Positions 5,204 to 32,091 of a DNA stretch of 64,000 bases are shown piece by piece (the first letter of the stretch is position 1; each line of letters begins with the position of its first letter). Source of the stretch: an uncultured Thermococci archaeon. Its GTDB lineage: Archaea; Methanobacteriota_B; Thermococci; Methanofastidiosales; Methanofastidiosaceae. The notes under the pieces were generated by a model. It did not search any database, had not been told where the DNA came from, and saw only the letters and a program-made list of their open reading frames with translations. Made by a program: the position numbers and the translations under genes. The stretch is taken from contig CAZCMP010000004.1 in assembly GCA_964500005.1 (NCBI GenBank), forward strand, positions 97,816-161,815, written 5' to 3'.

Positions 5204-5849
5204 TGCCGGGATCTCCTATATCGTAATAGACTGATTCCCCCTCTTTTTTATAGGGGTGCCTCAGTAGCGTTGCTTTCCTCTTGTTGTTATTCTGCTCTTC
5301 CTTTTCAAGCTTAACGATCAGTTTGGACCAGTATTTTAGGACCTCCCCGCCGATGGGGACCTTCTCTTTGCTGCCAGAAACATCGTCGTAGACCTGGTTT
5401 GTGATCACTAAGGGTATGTTAAAATCTCTAGCAATCCGGGATAGAATCAATAGATCGTTACCAAGCTGCCTTGCTAGCTCCGTCCTCTTCTTGTGATCGT
5501 ATCCTTCTAGCCGGTACAGTGATACTAAAGAGTCAACACAAACAAAACCGATCCTTGTGCTCATTATCTTCTCAAGCTTTGCAACAGATTGCTGTTGGGT
5601 GGCATAGTCCCTTGGCTGGAAAACTATTATTTCCTCTAGGTTTTTTACACCCATAAGAGATAGCCTCTTTGGAGAAAATCCGCCTTCTGTGTCAATGAAG
5701 ACTGATTTTTTGTCTCGCAAGAGGGAGTACTTGCAACACATCAGGCATATCGTAGTCTTGCCTGTTGCATGCTCTCCATAAAACTGCGTTATGACCCCCT
5801 CTGGTATCCCGTCTATTAAAAGGTCCAAAGGGTTTCCGCCAAACTTTAT
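5184..5849 (-). CDS. radB: DNA repair and recombination protein RadB (start probably ATA 5849; ORF track uses GTG 5858)
   Basis: Walker A GEHATGKT, FIDTEGGFS, VDSLVSLYR, ITNQVY, GGEVLKYWSK. Confidence 0.9.
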   Translation of the reverse strand: MKFGGNPLDLLIDGIPEGVITQFYGEHATGKTTICLMCCKYSLLRDKKSVFIDTEGGFSPKRLSLMGVKNLEEIIVFQPRDYATQQQSVAKLEKIMSTRIGFVCVDSLVSLYRLEGYDHKKRTELARQLGNDLLILSRIARDFNIPLVITNQVYDDVSGSKEKVPIGGEVLKYWSKLIVKLEKEEQNNNKRKATLLRHPYKKEGESVYYDIGDPGIIDASF

Positions 5850-5966: not shown

Positions 5967-6043
5967 GGGCCCATGGTCTAGTTGGTCATGACGTCACCTC
6001 GACACGGTGGAGGTCCTGAGTTCGAATCTCAGTGGGCCCACCA
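5967..6043 (+). tRNA. tRNA-Val (GAC), CCA encoded
   Basis: GGGCCCA/TGGGCCC acceptor stem, TCACC/GGTGG anticodon stem with loop TC-GAC-AC, TTCGAAT T-loop, ACCA, then a T-run. Confidence 0.95.
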
Positions 6044-16178: not shown

Positions 16179-17172
16179 TGTCCCAGTTGCCGTTTCTTTC
16201 GTCACGCCAAACTACCCGATTGCAATATATCTTTGGATCCTCTTGTTTAAATGGGTATGTAGATATATCGAAAAATTCTCCAGCCCTTATATTGTAGCCT
16301 CTGATGTTCCATTTATCCTCGCCAACAGGATCTTCTTGCCAGACGACTATGTCACCGTATATTGCTGGCTTGTATCGTATAACTGAATCATCCGGGGGTA
16401 TATCAAAATAAACTCCAGTCCTTAGGTTCTTGCCTCTGACGTTCCATTCCTCGACGTCATTAGGATCTTGTCGCCAGACGACTATGTCACCGTATATGGC
16501 TGGTTCCTCTTCTTTAAATTGGCCTGTAGCTATATCGTAATAGACTCCAGTCCTTATATTGTAGCCTCTGATGTCCCATTTCTGATCGTCATCAGGCCAT
16601 TCCTGCCAGACGACTATGTCACCGTATATTTTTGGACGCTCTTGATTAAATGGATCTGTAGCTATATCGTAATAAACTCCAGTCCTTATATTGTAGCCTC
16701 TAATATTCCAGTCTCCCCCGCCATCTGGATCTTCTTGCCAGACGACTATGTCACCGTATATTGCCGGCCAGTATCGTCTAACTGGAGGATCACCTGAAGG
16801 TATATCAAAAGGTATATCAAAATAAGCTCCTGTCCTTAGGTTCTTGCCTCTGACGTTCCATTCCTGCTTGTCATCAGGATCTTGTCGCCAGACTACTATG
16901 TCGCCGTATATGGATGGTTCCTCTTCTTTAAATGTTTCTGTAGCTATATCGTAATAAACTCCAGTCCTTATATTGTAGCCTCTGATGTTCCATTTGTTGG
17001 CGTCAGACTCTTCTTGCCAGACGACTATGTCACCGTATATTGCCGGATTTACAATCGAATAATCCGAATCTGTTATCCTCTGTTCGCTCAAGACCCTTGT
17101 CCCCATAACTGCTGAAACAGTGGCAAATGCCAAGACAAAAATAATTAATAATGATTTTAGATATTTTTTCAT
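16081..17172 (-). CDS. Secreted beta-propeller repeat (TolB-like/methanogen surface) protein
   Basis: Signal peptide MKKYLKSLLIIFVLAFATVSA; about 7 PAIYGDIVVW blades; final WRDERNGNWDIY. Confidence 0.88.
   Translation of the reverse strand: MKKYLKSLLIIFVLAFATVSAVMGTRVLSEQRITDSDYSIVNPAIYGDIVVWQEESDANKWNIRGYNIRTGVYYDIATETFKEEEPSIYGDIVVWRQDPDDKQEWNVRGKNLRTGAYFDIPFDIPSGDPPVRRYWPAIYGDIVVWQEDPDGGGDWNIRGYNIRTGVYYDIATDPFNQERPKIYGDIVVWQEWPDDDQKWDIRGYNIRTGVYYDIATGQFKEEEPAIYGDIVVWRQDPNDVEEWNVRGKNLRTGVYFDIPPDDSVIRYKPAIYGDIVVWQEDPVGEDKWNIRGYNIRAGEFFDISTYPFKQEDPKIYCNRVVWRDERNGNWDIYLANLDVVCETAKKSLPMNWIMKKFGLGNKE
16342..17040. repeat. Six intragenic copies of gac(g/t)actatgtc(a/g)ccgtatat, spaced 129-150 nt (propeller blades)
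   Basis: Copies at about 16342, 16477, 16609, 16741, 16891 and 17020; all spacings are multiples of 3. Confidence 0.9.
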
Positions 17173-17309
17173 AGTTATCACTCTTAATAATTGTAATAAA
17201 ACTGATTTTTGGGAATATAAGTGTTTCGCCTAAATAGACTAAGGCGTTTTCCCTAAATTTAAATCCAAAATCTTGCATAAGACTCTAAATTAAAAATATT
17301 AAAAGTAGG

Positions 17310-17384
17310 GGCCGGGGCCGAGATTTGAACCCGAGTCATGGGATCCACAGTCCCATAGGATAACCATGCTACCCCACCCCGGCC
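17310..17384 (-). tRNA. tRNA-His (GTG) with encoded G-1
   Basis: G-GCCGGGG/CCCCGGC-C acceptor, TGGGA-CTGTGGA-TCCCA anticodon arm, TTCAAAT T-loop. Confidence 0.95.
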
Positions 17385-26883: not shown

Positions 26884-27591
26884 TTATAGCAGCCTTAGTC
26901 CCTCTAGTAACTCCTCAAGAGTTTCTATAGGGGATAAGATAAGGGGTATTTTCTGTATTTCGGCCAACTGCACAGCAATTTCATCTATTTTTTTTGCTCC
27001 GTGTAAAACTACTAGGGAAGGGATTATGCCCTGTACTTTAATTGCAATCATTGGGGATCTTCCAGTTGATACCTTTGTAAATATCAAAGCCCTCTCCGAA
27101 GAAAGTCCATAAAGCTTTAGAAATTCTTCTGAATTCAAATTAAGAATGGCCTTAATGCTATCAATAACTGTATATCCGTGAATTTCCTTACTTAAGTACT
27201 CTTCATTTACCAGTATCTCGCCATCGACCGCATCAATAAGTTTTGTTGGCGGTATTGGAACTGGGAACTCTTTGAGATCCAGAACAACGTCGCTTATTAC
27301 ATCCTTAGTAAATCTGTGGCTAAAGGAATGGATTATCTTTCCGCCTCTTTTTATATCAATATCAATTAAGCTTTCAACGACTTTCCTAATTGTGGAAGAG
27401 CCAGGAGATTTCCTCCTACCTCCCTCATAATCACTTACAACAGAAGGAGATATAGAAAGATGGTGGGCCAAATCAGTTTGAGATATGCCAAAAATTTCTC
27501 GCCATTTCCTTAATGTCTGGCCAGGATCATCTGATAAAACAACCTCCCCCGCTATCATCTTAGCAAGTTGTTCTTTTGCATCTTCAAACAT
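26884..27591 (-). CDS. Cro/XRE HTH + DRTGG-like conserved archaeal regulator
   Basis: LRKWREIFGISQTDLA..ISPSVVSDYEGGRRKSPG; GYTVIDS; STGRSPMIAIK. Confidence 0.85.
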   Translation of the reverse strand: MFEDAKEQLAKMIAGEVVLSDDPGQTLRKWREIFGISQTDLAHHLSISPSVVSDYEGGRRKSPGSSTIRKVVESLIDIDIKRGGKIIHSFSHRFTKDVISDVVLDLKEFPVPIPPTKLIDAVDGEILVNEEYLSKEIHGYTVIDSIKAILNLNSEEFLKLYGLSSERALIFTKVSTGRSPMIAIKVQGIIPSLVVLHGAKKIDEIAVQLAEIQKIPLILSPIETLEELLEGLRLL

Positions 27592-27675
27592 ATAGTTAAA
27601 TAACGAATACAAATATATAAAATTTTCGTTGAAAAGCGGAGAAAATAATAAAAATAGAAGCCAATAATTACATAT

Positions 27676-28719
27676 ATGTCGAATGTCTACTTTGTTCCAT
27701 GGAAAGAAGACTCCGATATGGTTGGTAAGTTTCGGAGGATTCTTAGGAAAAGCAATATTCTAGAAGAGATCTCTAAAGAAGATAGAGTTGCAATTAAACT
27801 ACACGTTGGCGAATATAAAAATCCGGCTCATGTGCATCCCCTCTACATCAAAGAGTTAGTCTCTGGACTTCTAGAGAAGGGATGTGAACCTTTTCTTACA
27901 GATACTACGACTTATTATTGTGGTAACAGATTTTCTGCTGTGGGTATGCTAAAGAATGCATTTTATCACGGTTTTTCTCTTGCAAATATTGGGGCGCCTT
28001 TCATTGTTGCAGATGGCCTAGGGGATAATGAAGGCTTTTCTGTCAAAGTTAGAAGCCCTTTAAACGAAGTAGTCGTACCAACTCTTTTCAAAGAAGTTGA
28101 CAAGATGATAGTTTTTAGTCATTGCAAGGGGCATGCACTGACCTCATTTGGGGGGTCAATAAAAAATGTTGCGATGGGATGTGTAACAAAAAAGTCAAAA
28201 CTTGCTATGCATAAGTTTGTTAATTTCTGCTATGATGATTCCCTTTGTGATGGATGCAACGCTTGTAAAGAAGCTTGTGATAGGGAGATACCTGTAATAA
28301 AAAATGGTAAAAGAGTTCTTTCTCTTGAAAAAAAAGAAGATTGTATGCACTGCCCCTCGTGCATGGAAGCTTGTACGCGGGGTGCAATAAAATTATCAGA
28401 GCGTGAGAGGCTAGAACAGGTACTCCCAATAGCAGTTGAAGGGTTATTCAAAGTATTAGGCAAGGAAAATGTGGCATCAATCAACTGGGGTGCAAATATC
28501 GTAGAGTATTGTGACTGCATGCCATATCCGGGTAAGGTAATTAGAGACAATACAGGGATATATATCTCAAAAGATATTGTTGCTGTTGACAAGGCCTTCC
28601 TTGATGATGCCAAAAAGGATACTTTTATGTTTGATGAAAGGCCTAATCCAGAGATTCAAACAATTGAAGGAGAAAAGATCGGCATAGGAAAAATGGAGTA
28701 CGAAAAAGTAACATTATAG
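27676..28719 (+). CDS. DUF362 domain Fe-S protein with ferredoxin insert
   Basis: VAIKLHVGE, SHCKGH...GGSIKNVAMG, CDGCNAC..C, CMHCPSC..AC, DIVAVD. Confidence 0.88.
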   Translation: MSNVYFVPWKEDSDMVGKFRRILRKSNILEEISKEDRVAIKLHVGEYKNPAHVHPLYIKELVSGLLEKGCEPFLTDTTTYYCGNRFSAVGMLKNAFYHGFSLANIGAPFIVADGLGDNEGFSVKVRSPLNEVVVPTLFKEVDKMIVFSHCKGHALTSFGGSIKNVAMGCVTKKSKLAMHKFVNFCYDDSLCDGCNACKEACDREIPVIKNGKRVLSLEKKEDCMHCPSCMEACTRGAIKLSERERLEQVLPIAVEGLFKVLGKENVASINWGANIVEYCDCMPYPGKVIRDNTGIYISKDIVAVDKAFLDDAKKDTFMFDERPNPEIQTIEGEKIGIGKMEYEKVTL

Positions 28720-28734
28720 TTAAAATATAATTCT

Positions 28735-28949
28735 AAAAGTGTTGGGAATCCCCTCCATTAGGCCATTTTCAGGAAGAGAGGAGGGGATTCTTTGGGTACT
28801 TCTTTCGTCTTTCGAGCAGAATCGCATGCATTTCCACCGTCAAAACTTGGAAGACCCTTTGTCCTTGCCATGGAGCGCATGCATTTCCAAGACAATAGAC
28901 AATCTTGTTCATTGATGACTTGTGACAGTTGTTGCCAGCAACTATCACT
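28735..28949 (-). ncRNA. Candidate structured non-coding RNA (~210 nt) of unknown family
   Basis: Upstream BRE/TATA, 5' 10-bp hairpin at the predicted TSS, internal 14-nt direct repeat, 11-bp 3' stem, T-run. Confidence 0.55.
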
Positions 28950-28971
28950 AGTAATAAATTATGATAACAAC

Positions 28972-28987
28972 TATATAAAGCTTTCGG
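28972..28987 (-). promoter_or_regulatory. BRE-TATA promoter (ccgaaagc-tttatata)
   Basis: Consensus archaeal promoter with no substantial minus-strand CDS downstream. Confidence 0.7.
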
Positions 28988-29083
28988 TTAACAATGGCTA
29001 GATATAATGAAAATCACTGATGATTATTATTGATAAACAACATAAACTTTTAAAATATAAAGTTGATAGTTAAATTGAGTGTT

Positions 29084-30499
29084 ATGAAGAAGATTCTTAT
29101 TGGTGGAAGATGGGTTGATACAAACAGTTACATAGATGTGATAAATCCCTATGATGGAAAAGTTATAGATAGTGTGTCTAAGGCTTCATCTGAAGATATA
29201 AAAGAGGCTGTTGACTCCGCAGTCCGAGGAAGCATAATCATGAGAAGACTTAGCAGACATAAAAGGTATGAAATACTGTCAAAGGCTGCTGAGTTGATGT
29301 TGAATAGAAAAGATGAGATTGCAAGAACAATGTCATTAGAGAGCGGCAAACCGCTTTCTTTTGCTAAGGGTGAGGTTTCAAGGGCCCATGAAACAATTGT
29401 ATTGTCAGCGGAGGAAGCAAAGAGGATTGGGGGGGAAGTAATACCTTTTGATGCTGCGCCAACAAGCTCTGACAAGTATTGTTTTTACATAAGAGTTCCT
29501 GTTGGAGTTATATTGTCCATTACACCATTTAACTTTCCTTTGAATCTTGTGTGTCATAAAGTAGGCCCTGCAATAGCGGCTGGAAATAGTGTAATACACA
29601 AACCTGCATCAAAAACTCCTTTGACTTCCCTAATTTTGGGCGAGATACTTTTAGAGGCCGGGCTCCCTAAAGAAGCATTAAATATAGTCATATGCTCTGC
29701 TGAAGATGCCGAGAAATACCTTGTTAAGAATCAATTGATTAGGAAGATATCATTTACAGGGAGTAAATTGGTAGGAGAGAAAATTGCTTCTAATGCCGGT
29801 TTAAAGAAACTTTCAATGGAACTGGGTTCCAATTCTGGGGTAATTATCGATGAGAAAACTGATATTGACAAGGCTGTGTCTGCTGTAAGAGTTGGCGCAT
29901 TTGGATACTCTGGACAGGTATGTATTCACTGCCAAAGAGCTTACGTTCATGAGAGCGTCTATGAAGAATTTAGGGAGAAAATTGTTAATGCTGCAAATAA
30001 TCTTGTTATTGGCGATCCAATCGAAATGTCAACAGACATTGGCCCAATGATCGATGAGAAGGAGATAGTAAGGGTCCTCTCATGGATAGATGAAGCAAAG
30101 TCTCAAGGCGGCAAGGTTCTATGTGGTGGTGAAAGGGAAGGTTTCGCATTAAAGCCAACTGTAATTGAAAATGCAACTGAAGAGATGAAAATAGTAAAAG
30201 ACGAAACATTTGGCCCAACTCTAGCCCTGATGCCATTTAGTGATTTCAAAGATGCTGTAAGTAAATTGAATGATTCAATCTATGGATTACAGGCGGGCGT
30301 GTTTACTGAAAATCTTAGGAATGCATACTATGCTATTGACAACTTAGATGTTGGCGGGGTTATGATAAATGACGTTCCAACATTTAGGATAGATCTAATG
30401 CCCTATGGCGGGGTAAAGTGTTCAGGATATGGGAGAGAAGGCCCAAAATATGCAATTGAAGAAATGACCGAAATAAAATGTGTAAGGTTTCACATTTAG
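29084..30499 (+). CDS. NAD(P)-dependent aldehyde dehydrogenase
   Basis: ITPFNFP, KPASKTP, FTGS, MELGSN, GQVCIH, ETFGP, PYGGVKCSGYGREG. Confidence 0.95.
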   Translation: MKKILIGGRWVDTNSYIDVINPYDGKVIDSVSKASSEDIKEAVDSAVRGSIIMRRLSRHKRYEILSKAAELMLNRKDEIARTMSLESGKPLSFAKGEVSRAHETIVLSAEEAKRIGGEVIPFDAAPTSSDKYCFYIRVPVGVILSITPFNFPLNLVCHKVGPAIAAGNSVIHKPASKTPLTSLILGEILLEAGLPKEALNIVICSAEDAEKYLVKNQLIRKISFTGSKLVGEKIASNAGLKKLSMELGSNSGVIIDEKTDIDKAVSAVRVGAFGYSGQVCIHCQRAYVHESVYEEFREKIVNAANNLVIGDPIEMSTDIGPMIDEKEIVRVLSWIDEAKSQGGKVLCGGEREGFALKPTVIENATEEMKIVKDETFGPTLALMPFSDFKDAVSKLNDSIYGLQAGVFTENLRNAYYAIDNLDVGGVMINDVPTFRIDLMPYGGVKCSGYGREGPKYAIEEMTEIKCVRFHI

Positions 30500-32013: not shown

Positions 32014-32091
32014 TGGTGGGGTCGCTGAGATTTGAACTCAGGTCCCAAGCTCCCAAAGCTCGAAGGATAGGCCAAGCTACCCCACGACCCC
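32014..32091 (-). tRNA. tRNA-Pro (TGG), CCA encoded
   Basis: GGGGTCG/CGACCCC acceptor, CGAGC-TTTGGGA-GCTTG anticodon arm, TTCAAAT, ACCA. Confidence 0.96.

Follow-up and report, generated by a model that had tools for sequence, protein, structure and literature searches.

The spacer of 343 bp that separates the gene of a DUF362 Fe-S protein from an aldehyde dehydrogenase (ALDH) gene (ATG at 29084), in the 64,000-nucleotide stretch of archaeal DNA analysed here (the window), raises the question of whether it encodes a gene of its own and, if so, what that gene might do. The window comes from Candidatus Methanofastidiosum; with proteins encoded in metagenome-assembled genomes of that genus, the DUF362 protein shares 79-89% identity. 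Methanofastidiosum is part of a widespread group of uncultured methanogens of anaerobic digesters and sediments, and literature text searches returned no description of non-coding RNA biology for it. A sequence-only reading of the spacer had proposed a promoter-driven structured RNA on the minus strand, carrying an internal 14-nt direct repeat and acting perhaps as a protein sponge, a switchable RNA or a dual-function peptide RNA. The present analysis indicates that the spacer looks like a real minus-strand non-coding RNA gene with its own promoter and a predicted transcript, and the identification as a structured non-coding RNA gene is one in which we place high confidence. As both neighbouring genes lie on the plus strand, the RNA is convergent with DUF362 and divergent from ALDH. 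The locus comprises the following features, in window coordinates.

27676..28719, plus strand: DUF362 Fe-S protein gene, convergent with the RNA, its stop codon about 16 nt from the predicted RNA 3' end
28735..28949, minus strand: predicted small RNA (sRNA), long form, of about 215 nt, with the transcription start placed at 28949 +/-1 and an approximate 3' end
28735..28745, minus strand: 3' tail CCCAACACUUUU of the RNA, a conserved CCCAACA followed by a short U-run
28972..28987, minus strand: BRE/TATA promoter, CCGAAAG-C-TTTATATA, the whole box being CCGAAAGCTTTATATA, read directly from the letters
29084..30499, plus strand: ALDH gene, divergent from the RNA, with its own TATA near 29052-29060

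The consensus BRE/TATA box that had been proposed at 28972-28987 on the minus strand, with a start at about 28949, was confirmed, and its spacing proved to be like that of the tRNA promoters. The local reference for the consensus was provided by the tRNA-Val and tRNA-Pro promoters of the same window, which consist of (C/A)GAAAAUC and a T-rich TATA, like the sRNA promoter; the end of the TATA lies 22 nt upstream of the mature 5' end of tRNA-Val and 23 nt upstream of 28949 in the sRNA. Among all homologues aligned over the promoter, TTTATATA is invariant, the BRE reads CGAWAR, and a constant 21 nt separates the promoter from the conserved start UAGUGAUAG. The 216-nt stretch downstream folds with a minimum free energy of -72.4 kcal/mol, compared with -52.9 +/- 4.4 kcal/mol for dinucleotide shuffles (z = -4.46; none of 200 shuffles as good), and in the alignment of relatives conservation falls off past both ends of the predicted RNA. 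The U-run noted earlier at the 3' end is there, but it amounts to only 4 nt in the window, varies in length among the homologues and is missing altogether from several of them, and the 3' end of the RNA is therefore given only approximately.

Two further promoter-like elements were observed in the vicinity. An XRE-type helix-turn-helix gene (26884-27612) has a BRE/TATA, GAAAGnTTTATATA, at 27614-27627 on the minus strand that is almost identical to that of the sRNA; the box lies very near the start of the reading frame, and the mRNA is probably leaderless or begins at a downstream codon. In most relatives, the interval that separates the sRNA promoter from the divergent ALDH promoter contains an inverted repeat of 7 bp, TAATGAT-A-ATCATTA (in L003 at about 5250-5290, and equivalents in alignment columns 44-66); it resembles the operator of a dimeric transcription factor and is degenerate in the window (29013-29036).

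Homologous loci were gathered by way of the DUF362 gene, a DNA pattern for the 3' hairpin and the ALDH gene, and a covariance model was built from eight relatives. Exactly one strong match was returned per locus (73-208 bits), that of the window scoring 118.9 bits (E = 3e-26) over 28729-28950, with no second match in the rest of the 64-kb window or in the approximately 160 kb of collected loci. The homologues represent 18 distinct lineages and 19 distinct sequences, and in 18 of 18 lineages the RNA adjoins the same ALDH gene in divergent orientation. At the L026 locus (707-1450), DUF488 replaces DUF362 on the 3' side of the RNA, which is still found beside ALDH; the RNA thus stayed with ALDH across a rearrangement. 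The distant DUF362 homologues L013 and L015 (46-47% identity, in another genomic context) gave no RNA match, and ALDH identity drops from at least 80% inside Methanofastidiosum to about 52% in bacteria, for which reasons the locus could not be followed past the genus. The next-best ALDH homologues are bacterial (about 52%; Deferribacteres, Calditerrivibrio, Hippea). This distribution of identities suggests that the ALDH gene at 29084-30499 may have been acquired horizontally, with the RNA gene always alongside. A scan of metagenomes with the signature of the 3' hairpin found only three loci, one of them a duplicate of L004. Two pattern matches on viral contigs were dismissed as chance, being located inside a GC-rich reading frame of 1921 aa and scoring 13.6 bits. 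As far as sampled, the RNA family looks restricted to the genus Candidatus Methanofastidiosum.

The consensus fold consists of three conserved elements, namely the 10-bp H1, the long hairpin H2, and H3, which comprises 11 bp, an internal loop and a short capped stem. The window RNA, which has two copies of H2, is laid out as follows from its 5' end.

28922..28948, minus strand: H1, 10-bp 5'-terminal hairpin, GUGAUAGUUG (28948-28939) pairing with CAACUGUCAC (28931-28922), one pair being U-G
28911..28918, minus strand: core of the linker, UCAUCAAU, near-invariant in the alignments and unpaired in the consensus structure
28859..28902, minus strand: H2a, first copy of the hairpin module, mean pairing probability 0.77, orthologous to the single H2 of the short forms
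28876..28889, minus strand: core motif, copy 1, UGGAAAUGCAUGCG, forming the upper 5' strand and loop of H2a
28850..28857, minus strand: segment a, GGGUCUUC, derived from the palindrome GGAGCUCC and predicted to pair with segment b (probability 0.80)
28807..28846, minus strand: H2b, second copy of the hairpin module, pairing probability 0.69-0.79, folding on its own at -9.0 kcal/mol
28823..28836, minus strand: core motif, copy 2, UGGAAAUGCAUGCG, 53 nt after copy 1
28794..28802, minus strand: segment b, GAAGUACCC, the other descendant of the palindrome, predicted to form a helix with segment a and so to enclose H2b
28746..28790, minus strand: H3, an 11-bp stem, an internal loop and a short apical stem with an invariant apical sequence, probability 1.00
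28763..28773, minus strand: tip of H3, CCUGAAAAUGG, a CC/GG mini-stem capping the heptaloop UGAAAAU, the same in 18 of 19 sequences

Both terminal hairpins that had been read from the letters were recovered. H1, with its G-U pair (28922-28931 with 28939-28948), has a pairing probability of 1.00, and 98.4% of its cells are paired across the 19 sequences, the U-G at the fifth pair being kept in 13 of them. The 11-bp stem of H3 is perfect (28746-28756 with 28780-28790), 97.6% of its cells are paired and compensatory changes occur in five of its 11 pairs in the same set; at the tip, L028 carries a compensatory variant of the mini-stem, GCUC-UGAAAAU-GAGC. The check on conservation and covariation to which the sequence-only reading had looked thus came out positive, in 18 lineages and with compensatory pairs above those in shuffles. 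In an independent MAFFT alignment of eight sequences, seven compensatory pairs were counted against 2.4 +/- 1.2 in shuffles (0/500) and 96% of cells were paired against 38-53% with the partners slid, while the model-fitted alignment of 19 sequences gave 17 compensatory pairs against 7.5 +/- 1.8 (0/500) and 94% of cells paired against 40-53%, the shuffle statistics being inflated by the close kinship of the sequences. The larger alignment leans to the model, and in the long forms it matches arms from different H2 copies, the 5' one from H2a and the 3' one from H2b, an artefact that leaves H1 and H3 unaffected (98% paired each). G-U pairs outnumber A-C pairs in the helices by 63 to 14, and the helices therefore exist only on the minus strand of the window. 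The pair of mutually exclusive stems of 6 and 7 bp from which a switchable RNA had been conceived fared differently: the complementarity exists, but neither stem exceeds a probability of 0.01 or is conserved in the relatives, and the switch is left without their support. A closing helix around H3 (AGGAG/YUUCU) was also considered; it is compatible with the sequences, shows little double-sided covariation, is unsupported by L022, and is kept as tentative.

With regard to known families, a scan of the window with Rfam 15 (4227 models, including SRP RNA, RNase P, HgcC, H/ACA, C/D and riboswitches), in which membership is defined by a covariance-model score at or above the gathering threshold of the family, detected only three tRNAs (Val-GAC, 5967-6043, plus strand; His-GUG, 17308-17383, minus strand; Pro-UGG, 32014-32091, minus strand). 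Permissive scans of the locus in the window, L003 and L011 yielded only matches of E >= 0.08 to unrelated families, far below gathering, in agreement with the earlier reading, which had recognised no match to SRP, RNase P, C/D, H/ACA or common riboswitches. Literature text searches for the motifs and for sRNAs of Methanofastidiosa produced nothing relevant. Archaeal C/D sRNAs carry a terminal box C (RUGAUGA) and box D (CUGA), a K-turn and a conserved guide of 10-12 nt. The present RNA does have a box-C-like GUGAUAG at its 5' end and a CUGA in the H3 loop, but the GUGAUAG is fully Watson-Crick paired in the covariation-supported H1 (98% of cells paired), a 3'-terminal box D/CUGA is missing, and the length is 160-216 nt rather than about 50-70 nt. 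In archaeal H/ACA RNAs, a pseudouridylation pocket with conserved guide strands is found together with a K-turn or K-loop in the upper stem and an ACA about 14-16 nt from the pocket. An ACA follows H3 by three nucleotides here; however, its distance from the top of the loop is about 21 nt, L017 and L018 have AUA in its place, the 5' side of the internal loop of H3 varies in sequence and length (4-9 nt) among close relatives, and the upper stem of H3 measures only 2-4 bp without tandem G-A pairs. A cis-regulatory leader or riboswitch was rejected, given that both neighbours are encoded on the opposite strand and neither is a co-oriented downstream gene. What the locus does present is what an independent archaeal sRNA gene generally has, with a BRE/TATA at the canonical distance, a conserved structure and no coding potential, and, being found in 18 lineages with a fold backed by covariation and a promoter that is conserved, it makes a candidate Rfam family, previously undescribed as far as searched.

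The 14-nt direct repeat, whose two copies (28823-28836 and 28876-28889) are exact as had been claimed, is the conserved tip of a duplicated hairpin module, H2. At up to two mismatches, UGGAAAUGCAUGCG has three matches in the window against 0.38 expected, a number reached in none of 100 shuffles. The homologues fall into a short form of about 160 nt with one H2 (13 lineages) and a long form of about 215 nt with two (five lineages, including the window), and relative to the short forms the window has an insertion of 55-58 nt that corresponds to the second H2 module and the segment after it. Each of the two copies in the window can be aligned with the one module that the relatives have, and each folds as a hairpin. 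The long forms comprise the window, L021 (whose ALDH is 97% identical to that of the window), L022-L025 (one species from many samples), L026/L027 and L031, and H2b is found in all five lineages. When the two copies are superimposed with a constant shift of 53 nt, their flanks agree in only about 20% of positions, roughly as random sequence would, whereas the core is identical between the copies within each lineage over 12-32 nt: 14/14 in the window and L021 (UGGAAAUGCAUGCG), 18/18 in L022 (GUCGUGGAAAAGCAUGCG), 12/12 in L026 (GAAAUGCAUGCU) and 32 nt in L031, where the spacing is 55. Lineage-specific substitutions appear in both copies (U to A in L022, G to U in L026), from which it follows that the two H2 tips evolve in concert, either by gene conversion or because a shared partner requires both to fit. 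Across the H2 modules, it is the upper 5' strand and the loop that are conserved, the 3' strand varying freely provided that pairing is kept, and every module folds as a hairpin despite its differing arms. Most of the motif lies in the stem under a 5-nt loop in the short forms, while the H2 loops of the long forms span 10-11 nt and are predicted to be accessible. A loop-loop kissing contact between H2a and H2b extending beyond GCAUGC was rejected upon sequence inspection, as the lineage-specific changes are not compensatory. The occurrence of one or two H2 modules in closely related species, with the core kept identical, offers a natural experiment on the gain and retention of RNA modules, and the concerted core points to the nucleotides to be chosen for mutation or as bait.

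A second element distinguishes the two forms. In all 13 short forms, the exact palindrome GGAGCUCC, often extended to AGGAGCUCCU, stands in an A-rich unpaired stretch between H2 and H3, and it is absent from both copies in five of five long-form lineages. By itself, a palindrome of 8 nt could well arise by chance in an RNA of 160 nt; what counts is its invariance and its complete loss from the long forms. The corresponding long-form segments, which are not palindromic, are GGAGCUUC and GAAGUUCC in L022 and GGGACUUC and GUAGUACCC in L026. The duplex energies in the window are -11.2 kcal/mol for a:b, -6.3 for a:a and -3.6 for b:b, the a:b helix is present in the consensus structure of the long forms, and a:b outdoes a:a and b:b in four of the five long-form lineages, the exception being L031, the most recently homogenised; ensemble support for the helix is weak in L021. 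When two short-form molecules were co-folded, a dimer joined via the palindrome was predicted in 10 of 11 cases, with an energy of about -16.5 kcal/mol relative to the separate monomers. Taken as models, these foldings suggest that the palindrome may be a pairing element, intermolecular in the short forms and internalised in the long ones.

A more specific and distinctly unlikely proposal holds that the short-form RNA would be a homodimer formed via (A)GGAGCUCC(U), presenting two identical H2 tips to a dimeric partner, and that in several lineages tandem duplication would have converted it into an intramolecular a:b pseudo-dimer. Such a history would explain why the palindrome has been kept in 13 short forms and lost in five long ones, as well as the drift of a and b to mutual complementarity and the concerted H2 cores. 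An invariant GC-rich and unpaired palindrome of 8-10 nt in all short forms recalls the dimerisation initiation sites of retroviruses and the loop-loop contacts of phi29 pRNA, and the H2 tips, too, are self-complementary (GCGC, UCGCGA, GCAUGC, AUUCGAAU); unlike in those systems, the dimer here is a thermodynamic prediction only, and no homology is implied. If true, the passage from dimer to tandem would count among the few documented examples in which duplication has made a tertiary contact out of a quaternary one in RNA.

As to how the long form arose, a single origin finds no support in the ALDH neighbour-joining tree, in which the long forms are monophyletic in 0 of 100 bootstraps. Between long-form L031 and short-form L002, identity amounts to 90.7% for ALDH but only 81% for the RNA outside H2. 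Fully independent duplications are argued against by the derived characters that the long forms share, namely CUUC in segment a, GCAUGC loops and, for three of the four independent lineages, a spacing of 53 nt. The module may have been duplicated more than once or lost more than once, or the RNA locus may have been exchanged.

The mechanism proposed for this RNA would run as follows. From the strong BRE/TATA promoter, transcription would start at about 28949, and the RNA would fold into the 5'-terminal H1, the unpaired linker UCAUCAAU, H2 and the long 3' hairpin H3 capped by the invariant UGAAAAU, with H2 exposing UGGAAAUGC(AU)GCG in its loop and along the upper part of its 5' strand. In the long form, H2 and the adjacent palindrome would have been duplicated in tandem, the palindrome copies becoming the complementary segments a and b that enclose H2b. 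The product would be a stable trans-acting RNA whose working part we infer to be the H2 tip motif, recognised in a sequence-specific manner by a partner that is most likely a protein and may be dimeric. A short-form molecule would offer a single such site and a long-form molecule two, and further contacts would be made by the linker and the H3 loop. This trans-acting reading is favoured because the conserved motif of the short forms sits partly in a stem beneath a small loop, because the number of modules varies between one and two, because the copies evolve in concert, and because a strong promoter is combined with protective terminal hairpins. The sRNA gene together with the whole mechanism comes close to an even chance of being correct, and that H2 is specifically a partner-binding hairpin with a protein as its partner is put forward tentatively, at somewhat less than that.

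The nearest parallels in known systems are partial ones. Like CsrB and RsmZ, the RNA displays hairpin-borne motifs containing GGA that are repeated within one molecule and vary in number by module duplication; it has one or two modules where those RNAs have 5-20, its motif is a specific one of 12-14 nt rather than a bare GGA, and the GGA of UGGAAAU sits in a stem where the others expose at least five GGA motifs in loops. One or two H2 sites per RNA are few for a titrating RNA, and the repeat does not form a sponge array; no CsrA-like partner was seen in the 64-kb window, and to our knowledge none is known in archaea. A likeness by description, Rfam having given no match, is borne by the archaeal intergenic sRNAs, such as sRNA154, sRNA162 and sRNA41 of Methanosarcina mazei and those detected by RNA-seq in Thermococcales, which also have an independent BRE/TATA, a length of 100-250 nt and several stable hairpins, are also lineage-restricted, and also bear short motifs, repeated or invariant, through which they presumably contact their partners. 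In contrast to these, the most conserved motif of the present RNA is partly in a stem, and the module number is one or two between close species.

Were the RNA instead an antisense regulator, the linker UCAUCAAU, the H3 loop UGAAAAU and/or the long-form H2 loops (AAUGCAUGCG) would seed pairing with mRNAs, which we consider the main rival reading and on the whole rather unlikely. Invariant unpaired segments are typical of seeds, the accessible 10-11-nt loops of the long forms would suit such a role, and sRNAs with repeated seed motifs are known among archaea in Methanosarcina. Yet six conserved segments had no site in the 64-kb window that beat shuffled queries (a search of low power, over about 3% of the genome), no pairing with the starts of three neighbouring genes (ALDH, DUF362 and citrate synthase) held up across lineages (a search likewise of low power), and the short-form motif, mostly buried in a stem under a 5-nt loop, fits recognition by a protein better than antisense pairing. 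The persistent company of ALDH, in 18 of 18 lineages and outlasting the exchange of DUF362 for DUF488 in L026, would also befit an element acting in cis, be it H3 as a bidirectional terminator for DUF362, an antisense overlap with the 3' end of DUF362 or interference with the ALDH promoter, and the predicted 3' end is indeed only about 16 nt from the DUF362 stop codon, with a T-rich tract after H3 on the plus strand. Such a role is nonetheless improbable: the G-U pairs of H3 work only on the minus strand, a terminator would leave the invariant loops, H1, H2 and the conserved promoter unexplained, and the RNA persists in L026 without DUF362.

Translation of the locus, as a small-protein mRNA or a dual-function RNA, was suggested by the micro-ORFs of the sequence-only reading (28840-28884 and 28769-28831) and could likewise involve a leaderless GUG ORF at +3. 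ORFs of 14-59 codons do exist in the window, and public gene calls of 33-64 aa without a Pfam match have been placed on the RNA locus at 313-450 in L021, 1170-1361 in L023, 1170-1364 in L024 and 851-952 in L031, all on the minus strand. Among the 12 homologues listed, however, no reading frame is conserved, with frames, lengths and stop positions all differing: in L011, L016, L017 and L018 the GUG ORF ends within 15 codons, the frames of L006 and L012 are shifted relative to those of L003 and L004, and indels of 1-2 nt are common, while the substitutions follow base-pairing and not codons. The micro-ORFs are artefacts of the repeat, since each core contains an AUG, the idea of a peptide-encoding dual function did not survive the comparison, and we regard a translated product as highly improbable; the gene calls are very likely mis-annotations of the non-coding RNA, and a family entry would correct these spurious 'hypothetical protein' calls. 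Scarcely credible, finally, is the view of the locus as a mobile-element remnant (MITE) or as an otherwise non-functional palindrome-rich intergenic sequence, in spite of the internal repeat and the several palindromes: the RNA occurs as a single copy at a fixed syntenic position in 18 lineages and nowhere else in the window or the collected loci, it shows compensatory changes and a conserved promoter, and the only pattern matches on viral contigs are those dismissed above as chance. The earlier proviso that a MITE or an Rfam match would overturn the reading was thus pursued, with a single syntenic copy and no Rfam family match as the outcome.

Two minor observations concern repeats and resemblances elsewhere in the window. 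Tandem repeats are found at 16234-17040 (132 nt x 6, 69% matches) and 1403-1939 (276 nt x 1.9, 82% matches), where repeated protein domains are probably encoded. The linker stretch AUGAACAAGAUU of the sRNA (28901-28912) and the first codons of ALDH, AUGAAGAAGAUU (29084-29095), agree in 11 of 12 nt in the same sense, a likeness that is confined to the lineage of the window and is probably a coincidence.
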